Below, one piece after another: positions 1-55,711 of a stretch of DNA of 64,000 bases. How positions within the stretch are numbered: the first letter of the stretch is position 1; each line of letters opens with the position of its first letter. The position numbers and the translations under genes were made by a program. This DNA is from Thermoanaerobaculia bacterium (GTDB lineage: Bacteria > Acidobacteriota > Thermoanaerobaculia > Multivoradales > Multivoraceae), in the NCBI GenBank assembly GCA_963664405.1, contig OY761158.1, positions 1,440,001 through 1,504,000 of the forward strand, in the 5' to 3' direction. The notes under the pieces are model-generated. The model saw nothing but the letters and a program-made list of their open reading frames with translations, did not search any database and was not told where the DNA came from.

Positions 1-658
1 GGAGTTTGTCGAGGGTGGCGTGCCATCGGCCGTTGTAAAAGTAGCCGTCGGTACAGAAGAGAACCTTGGGCTCGATCTGCGGGAAGCGATCGAGAACCGC
101 GGCGACGCCGAAATCAGGAGAGGTCGTCGAGTACACGGCGCCTATCGAAGCCGTCGCCAACATCGCGACCACCGCCTCCGGAACGTTGGGCAAGAGCGCG
201 GCGACCCGATCGCCCTGTCGGACCCCCAACTCCGCCAATAGCGAGCTGAGAGCCGCCACCTCGCCACGAAGCTCGGCCCAAGACATCTCTCGTCGTGCGC
301 CGCTCTCACTACGAAAGATCAAGGCCGGACCAGCGAGATCCGGAGCCAGCAGATTCTCGGCAAAATTCAGCCGTGCCTCGGGGAACCAACGGGACCCGGG
401 CATCCGGTCGCCATCGACCAGAACGCTACTACCCCTCCCCGCCGCCCTGACTCCGCAGAAACGCCAGACTTGAAGCCAGAACTGTTCTCGGTTTTCGATC
501 GACCAACGGTGAAGATCGCCGTACCCGTCGAACGAACGACCAAGATTGGCCTCGGCTTTGGCGGTGAAGGCCGTCAACTGGGCCGCTGCAACGCGCTCCG
601 GCTGAGGGCGCCAAACCGGGGAGTGACTAGACCAGCGTTTCCAAAGTTCGTGCTGCAT
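1..658 (-). CDS. Acetoacetate--CoA ligase (AMP-binding enzyme), 5' part; runs off the window
   Basis: Manual translation (not in the ORF track): MQHELWKRWSSHSPVWRPQPERV...LHRWSIENREQFW...GDRVAALLPNVPEAVVAMLATASIGAVYSTTSPDFGVAAVLDRFPQIEPKVLFCTDGYFYNG. The ATG at 658 lies inside the palindromic element. Confidence 0.88.
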   Translation of the reverse strand, partial: MQHELWKRWSSHSPVWRPQPERVAAAQLTAFTAKAEANLGRSFDGYGDLHRWSIENREQFWLQVWRFCGVRAAGRGSSVLVDGDRMPGSRWFPEARLNFAENLLAPDLAGPALIFRSESGARREMSWAELRGEVAALSSLLAELGVRQGDRVAALLPNVPEAVVAMLATASIGAVYSTTSPDFGVAAVLDRFPQIEPKVLFCTDGYFYNGRWHATLDKL

Positions 659-792
659 AGCTCGAGGTCATTCTGTTCGCTGGCTAGGCGCGCTGACGCA
701 GGCATATTGGGCAATATGTCGAGGAGGCGAAACGACGCCAGCGGGCAGAAGGGCCCGAGATATGTGTGCGAACTTTGGAAACGCTGGTCTAG
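627..792. repeat. Palindromic element, subfamily A (166 bp, CTAG at both ends)
   Basis: Terminal inverted repeats CTAGACCAGCGTTTCCAAAGTTCG / CGAACTTTGGAAACGCTGGTCTAG; near-identical copies at 20964, 43958 and 55545. Confidence 0.95.
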
Positions 793-20259: not shown

Positions 20260-20967
20260 ATGGCTGAAAAAGAGATCGCTAGAGATCGGGTACGTAAGGG
20301 TGCCGAGCGGAGGCGTCATGAGCGCCATTCTCTCTCCGAAGTCCCCGGCCGGCTGCACCTCGCTCGCGATGTAACCGTCTTCGACCTCAGCACGACGGGT
20401 ATGGGCATCGAAACGTCGGAGCGACTGCTTCTCGGCGGCATCTACAAGATCCGGCTCGGGGAGCCTGAAGAGGAGCTTCCGATTCAAGCCCGGGTCGTGT
20501 GGTGCAAGCTCCTCGCCACACGCAGCGAGGGCGACGGATCGATCGTGCCCGTCTACAAAGCCGGCCTACACTTCGAGAACGCCGACTCTGAGGCGGTGAA
20601 AGGACTTGGCAGATATATCCAAGACCAAGCTGCTCCGGGAGAGAATACTCAACTCGAGGCAAGGATAAAGCTCGATAAACTGGCCAGAATTCTCGTCGGC
20701 GACGAGCTCGAGTTCATGGTCACCAAGATCAGTAAAGGGGGGATGGAAGCCGAGATGAGCCACCAACCCCGTATTGATTCGGTCCTGGATCTCGAGCTCT
20801 CCCTTGCCGGCGAGCACGTAGAGGTACGGGGTCGAGTCGTCAATACCGCCCACAAAAACGGCGGCGACCAGTGCTTCATCGTTGGCATCGAGTTCCTGGC
20901 CCCGAGCGAGCAGGCGGCACAGCGCTTGGACGCTTTCATCTCCACCCTCACTGCGGCCGGACACTAG
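20260..20967 (+). CDS. Tandem PilZ-domain protein
   Basis: RRRHER (RxxxR) and DLSTTG (DxSxxG); second domain has KISKGG. The TAG stop is inside the repeat's CTAG. Confidence 0.82.
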   Translation: MAEKEIARDRVRKGAERRRHERHSLSEVPGRLHLARDVTVFDLSTTGMGIETSERLLLGGIYKIRLGEPEEELPIQARVVWCKLLATRSEGDGSIVPVYKAGLHFENADSEAVKGLGRYIQDQAAPGENTQLEARIKLDKLARILVGDELEFMVTKISKGGMEAEMSHQPRIDSVLDLELSLAGEHVEVRGRVVNTAHKNGGDQCFIVGIEFLAPSEQAAQRLDAFISTLTAAGH

Positions 20968-21129
20968 ACCCGCGTTTCCAAAGTTCGCGCCACCTATCTC
21001 GGCCCCTTCTGCCCGCTGGCGGCGTTGCACCTTCTCGACAGATTCCCAATATGCCTGCGTCGGCGCGCCTTGCCAGCGAACAGAATGACCTCGAGCTATG
21101 CGACTCGAACTTCGGAAACGCTGGTCTAG
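20964..21129. repeat. Palindromic element, subfamily A (reverse orientation)
   Basis: 166 bp, CTAG to CTAG; reverse complement of 627-792 with substitutions. Confidence 0.93.
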
Positions 21130-29632: not shown

Positions 29633-29970
29633 GCGCCGGCGATCCGTACCTGACCGAAGTCAAGAAGTTGCCGGAGGAAGGGGCGCTACTCTTGACCTGG
29701 AGCGACGGCTTCCAGGCCAAGCCCTCCTACGACTATCTCTGCGGCTACTGCCCCTGTGCCGGGTGCCAGGGCTACGGTGGCACTATCGAGTATCACCAGC
29801 CGAAGCAGCCAATGGAGCCCGAGGACATCCGCCCCGTAGGAAACTACGCAATTCACATCGACTGGAAGGCCGGCTGCAAGGACGGAATCTACAGCTTCGG
29901 CTTCCTGCGCAAGCTCTGCTCGGTAGACGCGAGCAAGACCCCGACTCTCGACAAAGACGAGATCAAGTAG
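29629..29970 (+). CDS. DUF971 / gamma-butyrobetaine hydroxylase-like N-terminal domain protein
   Basis: WSDG...CPCAGC...PVGNYAI..W...GIYSF..LR; overlaps the mogA stop (ATGA). Confidence 0.85.
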   Translation: MSAGDPYLTEVKKLPEEGALLLTWSDGFQAKPSYDYLCGYCPCAGCQGYGGTIEYHQPKQPMEPEDIRPVGNYAIHIDWKAGCKDGIYSFGFLRKLCSVDASKTPTLDKDEIK

Positions 29971-30601
29971 TCGGCAAGGCGTCGCGCTCGTAGCCGGGGG
30001 TCACGTTCCCCAACTCGTCCGCTTCGAGGAGCGCGTGGAAGGGGTAGCCGCGCTCACGAATGCGCTCGGCACCTCCCGCTTGACGATCGAGGACCGCCGC
30101 AACCACAGCGATCTCACAGCCTGCCTCTTCGATCGCATCGAGGGCGCGAAGCACCGAGCCGGCGCTGGTGACGACGTCGTCCACCAAGGCGACACGACGA
30201 CCCGGCGTCAGAAGATCGCCATCCGGATGCCAGGAGACATCGATCTTCTGGCCTCTCCCGTGATCCTTCTGTTCCGAGCGCACGCAGAAGCCGTAGATCG
30301 GTCTCGACGAGCGCTCGCTGGCGATCGCCACGGCGGTAGCAAGGTAGGAGGCCCCCATCGCCAGGCCCCCGACAGCTTCGACCCCGAAGGGCTCCAGCAG
30401 GTCGCAGAGAGCTTCACCGACGAGCTTTGCACCTCGCGGCGAAAGTACGGTCAGTTTGGTATCGCAGTAGTAATGGGTCTCGGCGCCGGACACGAGAGTG
30501 AACTTACCGAAACGAATGCTCCTCTCAGTCAGCAGGGCGGCCAGCTCGTCGAGGCTCGCCGAAGCGACTTCTCCTCCGTCTCCCGACTCAGGGGCGGTCA
30601 T
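29963..30601 (-). CDS. pyrE: Orotate phosphoribosyltransferase
   Basis: FGKFTLVSG..THYYCD, R..QKDHG and VALVDDVVTSAGS (PRPP loop). Confidence 0.88.
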   Translation of the reverse strand: MTAPESGDGGEVASASLDELAALLTERSIRFGKFTLVSGAETHYYCDTKLTVLSPRGAKLVGEALCDLLEPFGVEAVGGLAMGASYLATAVAIASERSSRPIYGFCVRSEQKDHGRGQKIDVSWHPDGDLLTPGRRVALVDDVVTSAGSVLRALDAIEEAGCEIAVVAAVLDRQAGGAERIRERGYPFHALLEADELGNVTPGYERDALPTT

Positions 30602-31434
30602 CCCTCCTCCGCTTCATTCTCGACTCGCGGCTCGATATAGGCATAGGCGTTATGAGCGTGGATCGACTCGAAGTTCTCCACTTCCACGGAGAACCACTTG
30701 ATGCGCGGGTCCTTGCGAAGAAGAATCGTGACTTCGCGGCTCAGGTCCTCGACGAAGCGCGGATTGTCGTAGGCCTTTTCGGTCACGAATTTCTCGTCTT
30801 GGCGTTTGAGCACGGGATAGAGGTCGCAACTGGCGGATGCTTCGATCCACTCGATCAGCTCCTCGATCCAGAGCTCGCCCTCGAAGCGGGCCTTGACTCG
30901 CACCAGACTCCGTTGATTGTGCGCCCCGCGGGCACTGATCTCTTTCGAGCAGGGGCAGAGGGTCGTCACCGGCACGTCCACCTGTACTACGAAGTCATTC
31001 ACGTTGCCGGCACAGGCGTCGAAACCGCAGACATAGGGCATGACCCCACGAGCGCCGGTGACCGGGGCTGACTTCTCGATGAAGTAGGGAAAGGTCACGT
31101 GAAAGTGGGCTGTCTCCGCCTCCAGGCGGGTGCGCATCGCCTCCAGAAGGGCGGGAATCTCGTCCACTCCGATGGCGCCATCGTGGGCATTCAGCACCTC
31201 GAGGAAGCGACTCATATGAGTCCCTTTGAAGTGCCCGGGGAGATCGACATACATATTGATCGTGCCCACGGTCGACTGGGTTCCCTTGCCGCGGTCCCGA
31301 ACCACGATGGGGTACTCGATGTTCTTCACTCCGACCTTGTCGATCTTGATCTCGCGCCGGTCGGCAGAGCCCTGCACGTCGGCAAGCTCGGAAGTGTTGA
31401 TTGCCTTGCGTACTTCGTCGATCACAGTGGTCAT
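30598..31434 (-). CDS. folE2: GTP cyclohydrolase I, type IB (FolE2)
   Basis: IDKVGV, KGTHMSRF, TTLCPCSKEIS..GAHNQRS, LKR.DEK, NPRFVED and ESIHAHNA motifs. Confidence 0.95.
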   Translation of the reverse strand: MTTVIDEVRKAINTSELADVQGSADRREIKIDKVGVKNIEYPIVVRDRGKGTQSTVGTINMYVDLPGHFKGTHMSRFLEVLNAHDGAIGVDEIPALLEAMRTRLEAETAHFHVTFPYFIEKSAPVTGARGVMPYVCGFDACAGNVNDFVVQVDVPVTTLCPCSKEISARGAHNQRSLVRVKARFEGELWIEELIEWIEASASCDLYPVLKRQDEKFVTEKAYDNPRFVEDLSREVTILLRKDPRIKWFSVEVENFESIHAHNAYAYIEPRVENEAEEG

Positions 31435-31470
31435 AGCAAGTTCTCCAAAAGAAAACGATATCGCAGAAAC

Positions 31471-31809
31471 CTAAGGCGTGTCCCGAGATGCCATACGCCG
31501 AGACTCGATCACTTTCATCTTGCGCTCCACCTCGCTGGCGAGGTCGACGCCCCTCGTGTTCGCATAGTTGAGGATAGCGATCACGACATCCGCGGCTTCA
31601 TCTTCGAAAGCCGCAGCATCCTGTTGCTGCCCCCGCCAAGCCTTCTTCTCGAGATTCGCAAGCTCGCCGGCTTCGCCACAGAGCTCGAGCGCAAAAAAGC
31701 TGGTGGAGCGCTGAGGAAAAGCAGCCTCCTGATAGCGATCGAACTCCTTCTGCAGGGAACGCAGTCCCTCATAAGAGGAAGGAAGCATGGCAGGACTCAG
31801 GTCGGACAT
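31471..31809 (-). CDS. MazG-like nucleotide pyrophosphohydrolase (small all-alpha)
   Basis: ELCGEAGELAN (ExxE), EDEAADV (ExxD), GVDL..EV.RKM; GGAG ribosome-binding site before the ATG at 31809. Confidence 0.85.
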   Translation of the reverse strand: MSDLSPAMLPSSYEGLRSLQKEFDRYQEAAFPQRSTSFFALELCGEAGELANLEKKAWRGQQQDAAAFEDEAADVVIAILNYANTRGVDLASEVERKMKVIESRRMASRDTP

Positions 31810-31843
31810 GGTCTTCTCCACATCGAGTTGGATCACGCCTGGC

Positions 31844-32340
31844 GGGCACTCACACCGCGAGCTCTGCACCATAGGAGATTCCCCTCCTCGGGGCAACTCG
31901 ACCCCTTCGGGTTGGGTTCTCGTAGCTGGGGCCTCCGGGCTGGGGCCTCGCTCCGAAGAGCCGGCTGCCGGGGCGCGAGGCGTTCCCTGCTCGCTCGGCT
32001 CTCTGAGCCCGTCGCGCGTCGGTCGTCGCAGCCGAGCGGCTCCGTGCTCACGGACCCAATCACCCCTGCCTGGGCCGAGCCGGTTTCGGCGCTTTCGTAG
32101 AGAACCGCGGTAGGAAACTGGCCTGCGCAGTACTAGGAACCTAATCCCGGCTCGGCACGACGGGCTACGCCTCGGCTGCGCCGGGAACGCCTCACGCCCC
32201 TTCACCGGCTCTGAAGCTCGTCCCCTGCGCTAGATGCAGACCCGCGCCCCTCGGAGGAAGACCAGAGCGCTGACGCCTACGATCCTTCAGGTGGGTAGCC
32301 TGCGAATCTCAGGTGCTCACACTCCCTCAGCTGTGTGCCC
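31844..32340 (-). ncRNA. Candidate large structured RNA / leader (~500 nt)
   Basis: Nested long-range complementarities: 31844-49/32335-40, 31866-70/32312-16, 31875-81/32304-10, 31957-64/32205-12, 31970-87/32183-200, 32074-83/32147-56. Crossing pairs: 32006-17/32155-66 and 32027-36/32171-80. Two C.A mismatches on + become G.U pairs on -. Confidence 0.6.
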
Positions 32341-32382
32341 TCGGGAGGCGACGAAGAGTCGGCGAGGGAGAGGGGGGCGCAT

Positions 32383-32403
32383 TAATGCTGAGCGCACTCA
32401 TAG
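32383..32403. promoter_or_regulatory. Possible Fur/Zur-family operator between the divergent operons
   Basis: TAATG-N11-CATAG imperfect dyad in the only AT-richer patch of the intergenic region; weak. Confidence 0.25.
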
Positions 32404-32525
32404 GAGCGGCCGCCGTTCACCCCGAGGAGCACCCGCCCCCCTCCGGCCCCCTCGCAGCCCCCCCTCCGCGTCGGGGGCCCCAGCCAAGAGCGCGAGCCGC
32501 TGGTTCTTGATAATCTGGCAGATCC

Positions 32526-33557
32526 ATGACGACGGTGACCGACCCAGGAATCGCTCCGCCGCGGAGGGCGGCGAAGAAGCACGATCTACGGATACGGCCC
32601 CGCCGGAATCGGGTGAGCGCGGCGATTCGCTCGATGGTGCGGGAAACGGAGCTCTCCGCCGCCCATCTCATTTATCCCCTCTTCGTTGTCGACGGGCAAG
32701 GGCAGAAGGAGCCCATTGGCTCCATGCCAGGAGTATCGCGCCTCTCGATCGACCTGCTGCTCGATGAAGCCGCGGCTGCGGCTGCGCTGGGAGTGCCGGC
32801 AGTTGCCCTCTTCCCAGCCCTCCCGGACACTCTCAAAGACCGCTTCGCGACCGAGTCGACCAACCCGACGGGCCTGCTCCAGAAGACGGTGAGAGAGCTC
32901 AAGAGCGCGCTCCCCGAACTGATGGTGATCACCGATGTCGCCATGGACCCCTACTCGAGCGACGGTCACGACGGCCTGGTCGAGGACGGCAAGATCGTCA
33001 ACGACGAGACCCTCGACATCCTCGCCGCGATGGCGGTCTCCCAGGCCGAAGCGGGCGCCGACATGGTCGCCCCGTCAGATATGATGGACGGCCGGGTGGG
33101 AGTGTTGCGCAGCGCCCTGGACGAGAGCGGCTTCCAGGACGTCGGCATCCTCGCCTACTCCGCCAAATACGCATCCTCTTTCTACGGACCCTTCCGCGAA
33201 GCCCTCGACTCCGAGCCCCGCGGCGGCGACAAGAAGACCTACCAGATGGATCCTGCGAACGTACGTGAGGCCCTGCGCGAGGTGGAGCTGGATGTCCGCG
33301 AAGGCGCCGACATAGTGATGGTCAAGCCCGCTCTGCCCTACCTCGACGTCATCCGCAGGGTGAAGGAAGCTGTCGACGTGCCGGTCGCTGCCTATCAAGT
33401 CAGCGGCGAGTACGCGATGATCCAGGCCGCCGCCGAGAGAGGTTGGATGGAAGCTGACGCCCTGATGATCGAGTCCCTCACCGGGATCCGGCGAGCGGGC
33501 GCCGATGTCATCCTGACCTACTTCGCCCGCCGTCTGGCCGAGGTGCTGGCTCGATGA
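32526..33557 (+). CDS. hemB: Porphobilinogen synthase, non-zinc (Asp-rich) type
   Basis: [14 protein letters not shown] in place of the Cys-rich DxCxCx7C site; [21 protein letters not shown] and YQVSGEY motifs. Confidence 0.96.
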
Positions 33558-34042
33558 GTGAAGACGCCTCGCAGCCCTTCGCCGCCCGCACTAGCGTCGA
33601 GCAGGTCGAAGAAGGACACGAGCTGGCGCCGAAGTTCGACGACAACGGTCTCATCCCCGCGATCACCACCGACGCCACCACCGGCGAGGTGTTGATGCAC
33701 GGCTACATGAATGAGGCTGCCCTACGGCAGACTCTCGAGCTCGGCGAAGCCGTCTACTGGAGCCGAAGCCGCCAGGCCTTGTGGCACAAGGGAGCCACCA
33801 GCGGCCTGGTGCAACGCGTCGTCGAGATCCGCATCGACGACGACCAGGATGCGATCTGGCTCCGAGTGGAGTCGGTGGGCGGAGCCAGCTGCCACGTCGG
33901 CTATCGCTCCTGCTTCTATCGCCGCATCCCCCTCGCGGCCGAGAGCAGCGAGGGCGACACCCGCCTAGTATTCACCGAAGAGGAAAAGGTCTTCGACCCC
34001 GAAGAAGTCTACGGCGACGCACCAAACCCGACTCGTCTCTAG
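33554..34042 (+). CDS. hisI: Phosphoribosyl-AMP cyclohydrolase (first Cys replaced by Asp)
   Basis: [17 protein letters not shown]; DDDQD instead of DCDxD; CHVGYRSCF. Confidence 0.93.
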
Positions 34043-34203
34043 ACCCAGCGTCGCGCCTGGGGCGGCATGGCCGGGGCGTCTGACAGCGAGGCGATCTCGA
34101 AGGGGCCGGAGGCAGGCGGCGCGCCAATCACCTCGGCAGCTGAGTCGCGACCCTCGGCTGACCCCAGATACGAAACGAATCAAGGATAACCATAGAGATA
34201 GAG

Positions 34204-43957: not shown

Positions 43958-44123
43958 CTAGACCAGCGCTTCCAAAGTTCGTGCTGCATAGCTCGAGGTC
44001 ATTCTGTTCGCTGGCTAGGCGCGCTGACGGAGGCATATTGGGCAATGTGTCGAGGAGGCGAAACGACGCCAGCGGGCAGAAGGGCCCGAGATATGTGCGC
44101 GAACTTTGGAAACGCTGGTCTAG
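43958..44123. repeat. Palindromic element, subfamily A
   Basis: 166 bp, CTAG to CTAG; only a few substitutions relative to 627-792; lies between the divergent metG and substrate-binding protein genes. Confidence 0.95.
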
Positions 44124-55544: not shown

Positions 55545-55711
55545 AAAGACCAGCGTTTCCAAAGTTCGTGCACATAGCTCGAGGTCATTCTGTTCGCTGG
55601 CCAGGCGCGGCGACGCAGGCATATTGTGGCCAATATGTCGAGGAGGCGAAACGCCGCCAGCGGGCAGAAGGGGCCGAGATGTGTACGCGAACTTTGGAAA
55701 CGCTGGTCTAG
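55545..55711. repeat. Palindromic element, subfamily A
   Basis: AGACCAGCGTTTCCAAAGTTCG...CGAACTTTGGAAACGCTGGTCTAG; left CTAG is degenerate. Confidence 0.93.

Follow-up and report, generated by a model that had tools for sequence, protein, structure and literature searches.

The 716-nt divergent spacer between a MazG-like gene and hemB (31810..32525), within the 64,000-nt stretch of Thermoanaerobaculia DNA analysed here (the window), is occupied by an insertion of about 570-650 nt that is non-coding and specific to this lineage, and the nest of helices found in this spacer is the middle of that insertion. The inserted unit is a composite that consists of a module present in eight copies in the genome (hereafter module A), a poorly conserved linker and a strongly folded core of 256 nt, and a diverged second copy of the unit resides elsewhere in the same 6.78-Mb genome (G000). 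The most likely identity of the unit, which we put at about an even chance, is that of a non-autonomous insertion element rich in palindromes, of the MITE or REP-like kind, or its relic; such an element would be mobile, with a mobilising function behind it, and would lack a dedicated cellular role.

On the minus strand, the spacer is bounded by the MazG-like gene (31471-31809, ATG at 31809), which encodes a protein of 112 aa with a sub-threshold MazG domain only (18.9 bits against a cut-off of 22). Together with folE2 (30598-31434; Pfam GCHY-1, 2.4e-95) and pyrE (29963-30601; TIGR00336, 116 bits against a cut-off of 106.8), both also on the minus strand, it makes up the neighbouring operon MazG-like/folE2/pyrE (29963..31809). 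On the plus strand, hemB (32526-33557, ATG at 32526) is followed by a PRA-CH/hisI-like gene (33554-34042), hemB and hisI jointly spanning 32526..34042. By eye, a promoter-like pair can be read on the minus strand towards the MazG-like gene (TTGCCC at 31896-91 and TATGGT at 31873-68, 17 nt apart), a weak match (8 of 12 positions) that the promoter scan did not call, and a weak promoter-like hexamer, GATAAT (32508-32513, plus strand), similarly lies 12 nt before the hemB ATG. Weak hexamers in short flanks outside the inserted unit fit native promoters that were pushed apart by the insertion. Promoter and terminator scans of both copies of the unit found no promoter-like or terminator-like site.

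The insertion status of the unit follows from comparison with relatives in which the gene order is conserved. The spacer between hemB and the MazG-like gene, 716 nt here, is 137 nt long in G006, and the spacer upstream of hemB in G008 measures 103 nt. In G006, hisI-hemB is divergent from MazG-like/folE2/PRT, that is, the order is the same, and there is no match to R1, a covariance model that we built from the two copies and that scores these copies themselves at 301 and 282 bits. At the paralogous site, the stop codons of the GWxTD and TPR genes are 714 nt apart, as against 40 nt in G001, -25 nt in G008 and 47 nt in G002, and all three of these relatives keep the PTPS-GWxTD/TPR order without the element. 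Given short spacers with conserved synteny in the relatives, both copies are lineage-specific insertions, each adding roughly 600-700 nt, and, judging from the same genome comparisons, both are recent on the scale of the family. The GC content of both spacers is 68-70%, compared with 62.6% for the genome.

The element is absent from the relatives that we searched. BLAST with the core did not find it in 60 relatives, four of which yielded matches of 31-43 nt only, with the rest of the element missing. Across 56 other genomes of the family, the best R1 score was 19.9 bits, a partial match that we judged to be chance, and a search of 150 other genomes sampled across the class returned the same match only. 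An exact 22-mer had no matches in either genome_contigs or metagenome_contigs, and an exact 20-mer had one match in each, with R1 scores (13.0 and 9.1 bits) at the level of chance; two exact 18-mers had no matches in viral_contigs, and blastn against plasmids and against phages gave no match. These scans of collections, which may omit near records, respond to exact words or near identity and could miss distant homologues.

BLAST of the gap against its own genome leads to positions 4162622-4163157, which are 72% identical over 31957-32455 of the window, within a second copy of the unit located at 4162588-4163200; the cores of the two copies are about 77% identical, and whole-genome BLAST found no core copy beyond these two. 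The paralog sits between the stop codons of the convergent GWxTD and TPR genes, 3' of a PTPS-GWxTD pair; lying between convergent stop codons, it cannot be a 5' leader and heads no operon. The second neighbour of each copy is a pterin-pathway gene, namely folE2 (30598-31434) in the window and a PTPS-family gene (L002, 256-759) at the paralog, which we take as coincidence (n=2) because both syntenies occur in relatives without the element.

Alignment to the paralog widens the shared unit to about 31919-32490 (about 570 nt, minus strand), with boundaries that are drawn from similarity to the paralog rather than from an empty-site alignment. In the minus-strand direction, the unit starts with module A (32370..32490; 94 of 127 alignment columns identical to the paralog), proceeds through the linker (32213..32369; 83 of 194 columns identical, with 41 gap columns over 32214-32369) and the core (31957..32212; 197 of 267 columns identical), and closes with a tail (31919..31956). 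Position 32213 is a lone base that separates the linker from the outer stem of the core. The tail carries two inverted copies of GCTGGGGCC, the head motif of module A, at 31925-33 and 31939-47 (plus-strand coordinates), the first of them preceded by GTAG at 31922-25. The ends of the unit form an inverted repeat (I2, 31919-37/32472-90) that is complementary at 16 of 19 positions in the window copy but comes down to a weak repeat of about 9 nt in the paralog. When the ends of the core and of the unit were read in both copies, no target-site duplication was seen, any direct repeats being 2 nt or shorter.

Module A, with eight copies in this genome, was not found in 36 relatives. In the window, a partial copy comprising the 5' part is located on the plus strand at 34065..34119, with 23 nt separating it from the hisI stop codon upstream. 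We considered whether hemB-hisI had been inverted between the inverted module A copies, but the same orientation in G006 rules this out. Further copies map to genome positions 5660645-5660900, 3075997-3076250, 3078700-3078950, 488103-488221 and 3560749-3560898. Five of the eight copies are situated 4-66 nt downstream of a stop codon that belongs to a co-oriented gene, and the module may be a lineage-specific 3'-end element. Each of three solo units of about 250 nt is closed by a stem of about 20 bp whose sequence varies from copy to copy while its two arms remain complementary. Module A itself has a weak consensus fold, with a covariation term of +1.25 and double-sided changes at 2 of 32 pairs. 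GTAG before the head motif occurs at the tail of the window copy and near genome position 3560898 and is missing in most module A copies. Aligning the solo units to the sequence beyond the core, as a test of whether the core had inserted into a unit of the solo type, gave an unconvincing result. Elsewhere in the genome, two convergent genes enclose a low-GC islet (0.51-0.61; positions 3076250-3078700, loci L005 and L006); behind each gene there is a module A copy, the two copies being inverted relative to each other, and the ORFs of the islet include a ParE_toxin (Pfam, 1.4e-8) and a truncated tyrosine recombinase of the Phage_integrase family (6.4e-11).

Palindromic intergenic repeats of several unrelated families abound in the genome, and spacers that harbour them can be inflated five- to tenfold. 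One of these families is a MITE of 166 nt, unrelated in sequence to the element studied here, that occupies about 230 genome loci, many of them more than 90% identical, and occurs four times in the window (627-792, 20964-21129, 43958-44123 and 55547-55711); it has perfect 24-bp terminal inverted repeats and folds at -92.6 kcal/mol. The genome also encodes 13 diverged ORFs with a Y1_Tnp (IS200/RAYT-like) domain, 12 of them above the Pfam cut-off (for example, at 6395600, 2208475 and 412965), which are possible mobilisers of its palindromic repeats. Four motifs, three taken from module A and the tail and the fourth from the end of the 166-nt MITE, were sought around these 13 loci; none flanked a locus on both sides, and there were two single matches, at one locus each. 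No link of the Y1_Tnp ORFs to a particular repeat family was found, nor is there a nuclease or transposase gene beside either copy of the unit.

The core amounts, in essence, to one long, imperfect palindrome. In the window copy, the closing stem amounts to 8+18 bp, namely an outer stem of 8 bp (31957-64/32205-12, the arm at 32205-32212 being CCGGCTCT) and a stem of 18 bp (31970-87/32183-200); in the paralog, it is a perfect 31 bp. The interior contains a co-axial 12-bp stem (32006-17/32155-66), a hairpin with a 10-bp stem (32074-83/32147-56) and repeated GCCGAGC/GCTCGGC words, with five occurrences in about 190 nt, three forward and two reversed, that allow alternative pairings, in particular the competition of 32027-36/32171-80 with 31992-32000/32030-38. 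All the helices listed in the earlier note on this DNA are indeed present, as given there or within one base, and our list of inverted repeats includes I1 (31970-90/32180-200), I13 (32074-83/32147-56), I9 (32006-17/32155-66), I5 (32024-36/32171-83) and I22 (31992-32000/32030-38). The last of these bears out the alternative partner that had been proposed for 32030-37 and is intact in the paralog. The crossing helices, and with them a pseudoknot, are possible, but one of the two, 32027-36/32171-80, has a C-A mismatch in the paralog.

The stability of the core is exceptional. On the minus strand, it folds at -150.6 kcal/mol (z -6.25), and on the plus strand the z-score is -4.08, with 0 of 200 dinucleotide shuffles as good in either case; the core of the paralog reaches z -8.12 and -8.04 on its two strands. 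The whole 714-nt gap, by contrast, is not clearly above chance on the minus strand (z -2.26, 1 of 20 shuffles equally good), and on the plus strand z is -1.05, with 3 of 20 shuffles equally good. Thus, of the structured RNA of about 500 nt that had been proposed, the inner 256 nt stand and the outline does not, the homology unit being about 31919-32490 and thus taking in 32370-32490, which that proposal did not cover. That outline depended on the three outermost helices (GGGCAC/GTGCCC, GCACC/GGTGC and GAGATTC/GAATCTC), which connect 31844-81 with 32304-40. Against mononucleotide shuffles, the duplex of these two segments does stand out (z -3.5; 1 and 2 of 500). The flank 31844..31881, however, lies outside the conserved unit and is not part of the sequence shared with the paralog, and it has a competing partner in the same gap, at 31915, that is at least as good (-30.8 compared with -28.9); for these reasons, we consider the outline wrong.

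Comparison of the two copies bears on whether the pairing has been maintained. The consensus fold of the two cores is better than all of 100 column-shuffled alignments on each strand (z -5.66 on the minus strand and -4.74 on the plus strand), and the z-scores for the whole unit against column shuffles are -5.33 and -4.45, respectively. In a structure of 48 pairs, 97.9% of the cells are paired in the two copies, compared with 36-45% when the partners are slid. Compensatory C-G to G-C changes occur in the 18-bp stem at 32196/31974 and 32189/31981, a C-G to U-A change, identified by hand, affects the outer stem at 32207/31962, and one further C-G to U-A change, also found by hand, involves the long-range pairing of the unit ends. 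On sequence comparison, these changes, which keep the closing stems paired, are suggestive. With two sequences only, the shuffle control for covariation was not significant (101 of 500), and the covariation is ambiguous inasmuch as the covarying pairs sit in stems that resemble terminal repeats, and a mobile element is expected to show covariation between its two ends even if no RNA is involved. Two pairs are broken in the paralog, the C-A mismatch mentioned above and a basal pair of the 10-bp hairpin.

The best-kept parts of the alignment are the internal stems and the unpaired junction strands rather than the ends; the junction strands are invariant, two loops are hypervariable, and a small hairpin is held at the same place with a different sequence. 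Two pairs of the 48-pair structure changed to or from G.U. In the window copy, as the earlier note had observed, the two longest helices each contain a G.U pair on the minus strand (32194/31976 and 32157/32015), and in the paralog there is another at the equivalent of 32158/32014; the four minus-sense G.U cells are A-C mismatches on the opposite strand, an asymmetry that hints at selection on an RNA. Four DNA-type sequencing runs (X8, X9, X10 and X12) contain the same two copies at low depth, and position 32014 reads A in all four, including an X10 contig (31869-32158) that matches the window copy's own flank, which makes this pair a G.U on the minus sense. One contig (depth 2) in runs X8 and X9 joins 32038 directly to 32135, with 32039-32134 (96 nt) missing; this shorter form may come from related organisms that carry a variant copy, or may have arisen as an artefact of assembly.

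The element does not belong to a described RNA family. At gathering thresholds, Rfam had no matches in the whole window, the best hit in the gap at E up to 10 scored 21.4 bits against a 70-bit threshold, and Rfam searches of the paralog and of two module A loci identified no known family, the paralog giving only generic hairpin matches to miRNA models; Rfam 15, which was used, covers RNase P, tmRNA, 6S, cobalamin, group II intron, HEARO, GOLLD, ROOL and OLE. ARAGORN found no gene. A coding function is rejected as well: the core alignment includes four 1-nt indels, there is no conserved small ORF, and the long ORFs in the region either overlap known genes or cross the element without support from the paralog. 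A type I toxin-antitoxin module was also considered and discarded, the only ORFs of at least 18 aa conserved between the copies being Arg-rich translations of conserved stems. The description of the region as undescribed, non-coding and strongly paired is therefore upheld.

Taken together, the second copy in an unrelated context, the short spacers in relatives, the lack of a conserved small ORF, the 31-bp stem of the paralog, the repeat-rich genome, the eight copies of module A and the GC content of the spacers favour a non-autonomous insertion element. The earlier note had named many dispersed copies in unrelated contexts as grounds for regarding the structure as a MITE, and our findings go a short way in this direction, with two copies of the core and eight of module A. 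Under the proposed mechanism, a function supplied in trans would carry the element into intergenic DNA, and the long stems would either serve as the recognition feature for the mobilising machinery or be kept matched by templated repair of quasi-palindromes; any effect on MazG-like/folE2/pyrE or hemB would be incidental, resulting from the presence of a stable hairpin between two divergent promoters. Against this identity, there are two copies with about 77% identity, while an active MITE has numerous, similar copies; no target-site duplication was seen, the end repeat of the paralog is weak, and no transposase gene with these ends was found among the 13 Y1_Tnp loci. Moreover, the internal conservation of stems and junctions fits a functional RNA or a protein-binding site better than a plain MITE.

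The leading alternative, which we regard as tentative although a real possibility, is that the core is a gene for a lineage-restricted structured non-coding RNA, with two paralogs, that would have arrived by insertion and would now be kept by selection. It would be transcribed in the minus sense, module A perhaps being a 5' domain or promoter region, and would act in trans on a protein or RNA. The stability of both cores (z -6.25 in the window and -8.12 in the paralog), the two-copy consensus fold that beats column shuffles on both strands, the three compensatory pairs in the closing stems with two one-sided G.U changes, the invariant unpaired junctions next to hypervariable loops, the hairpin held with different sequence, the A at 32014 in the X10 contig, the absence of a coding frame through the four indels, and the low copy number with stems preserved at 77% identity are all consistent with such a gene. 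These observations have to be set against the non-significant covariation test, the location of the covarying pairs in terminal-repeat-like stems, the two pairs broken in the paralog, the negative promoter and terminator scans, the lack of a homologue outside the lineage in the searches made, and the status of both copies as recent insertions on the family scale. An insertion element and a non-coding RNA are compatible identities and do not exclude each other. Their combination in a stronger form, which we consider unlikely, would make the core the founding member of a new class of mobile, pseudoknot-capable structured RNAs about 256 nt in length, known to date from a single marine lineage. 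Such an RNA would spread through insertion, accompanied by a REP-like 5' module, and would be under selection at the RNA level, for instance, as a protein scaffold or guide.

The same repeats and palindromes could instead act as DNA, in the form of an array of protein binding sites, a recombination or partition-like site, or a landing pad for a nucleoid protein or regulator that arrived with the insertion. The five GCCGAGC/GCTCGGC words in about 190 nt, the GCTGGGGCC heads at both ends of the unit, the conservation of module A as sequence rather than structure, and the inverted module A copies that flank the low-GC islet with its ParE toxin gene and truncated tyrosine recombinase are the observations that speak for a DNA-level role. 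Nevertheless, we hold it to be rather improbable, given that no candidate binding protein is encoded beside either copy and that the compensatory changes and G.U pairs require pairing, not merely repeated words.

That the element is a cis-acting leader or riboswitch of MazG-like/folE2/pyrE, sensing a nucleotide, a pterin or a metal, is very improbable and, on the comparative sequence data, largely refuted: the window copy does lie upstream of this operon in the same direction, 32030-38 has two alternative partners in a switch-like arrangement, and a pterin gene (PTPS) is likewise the second gene from the paralog, but the orthologous G006 operon has its 137-nt spacer without the element, the paralog is downstream of PTPS-GWxTD, faces the end of a convergent gene and leads nothing, the PTPS-GWxTD/TPR synteny persists without the element in three relatives, a promoter-like pair, read by eye, separates the element from the ATG, the scans revealed nothing resembling a terminator, and no Rfam riboswitch matches. 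The proposal that the structure heads and regulates the operon accordingly falls, with the G006 operon lacking it and the paralog lying between convergent genes, and the suggested tie to pterin or metal metabolism is unsupported, both copies being lineage-specific insertions and the second one occurring in an unrelated context.

A general caution emerges from this case: a striking nest of helices in a GC-rich spacer beside genes of interest proved to be inserted DNA that has a paralog at another site in the genome, not the regulator of those genes. Spacers inflated by such repeats could affect the transcription of neighbouring genes, for example, hemB and folE2. If the core is transcribed and its structure is conserved, it would represent an orphan structured RNA that moves as DNA, which would be of relevance for RNA discovery in uncultured marine bacteria.

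Among known systems, one comparison is with folate- and pterin-related riboswitches. The THF riboswitch and the folE motif are 50-100 nt long, reside in 5' UTRs and are conserved across genera. The only likeness is the position of the window copy upstream of a GTP cyclohydrolase operon, whereas the element is 256-570 nt long, is absent from the searched relatives and has a second copy outside a 5' UTR. The HEARO RNAs of IscB and the omega RNAs of TnpB are pseudoknotted RNAs of 200-300 nt that travel with mobile DNA, and copies without an ORF are possible. Here, the likeness is one of concept only, a structured RNA that moves with mobile DNA; the element differs in having no Rfam match, HEARO included, no adjoining nuclease or transposase gene, and no further copies found beside such genes.

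Another parallel is provided by REPs, the GTAG-tagged repeats of Di Nocera et al. 2013 (PMC3733652), which are palindromes of 20-40 bp with a GTAG or CGTC tag, present in high copy number and located mostly downstream of genes. Module A resembles them in that most copies closely follow a coding region, where the neighbouring genes run in one direction or converge, in the occasional GTAG tag in the module or the tail, and in the Y1 (RAYT-like) domains encoded in the genome. It differs from the REPs so described in its length of about 120-250 nt, in having eight copies from most of which GTAG is missing, and in that no motif-flanked Y1 gene was found.

A further likeness is to MITEs, which are miniature inverted-repeat transposable elements in the general description given in PMC11602168. 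The Correia and ERIC elements are examples of this kind. The element studied here departs from MITEs in having two copies that are about 77% alike, with no target-site duplication seen and no matching transposase found at the 13 Y1_Tnp loci tested, in termini that are less conserved than the interior, and in an interior that is a multi-helix structure with competing pairings instead of a simple hairpin. In its general organization, it is nevertheless MITE-like: it is non-coding, a few hundred bases long and intergenic, with long inverted repeats that form a big hairpin; it has terminal inverted repeats (31 bp in the paralog, 8+18 bp in the window copy, and 16 of 19 positions at the level of the unit); and it is present or absent at sites of conserved synteny, in a host genome that is rich in other MITEs.
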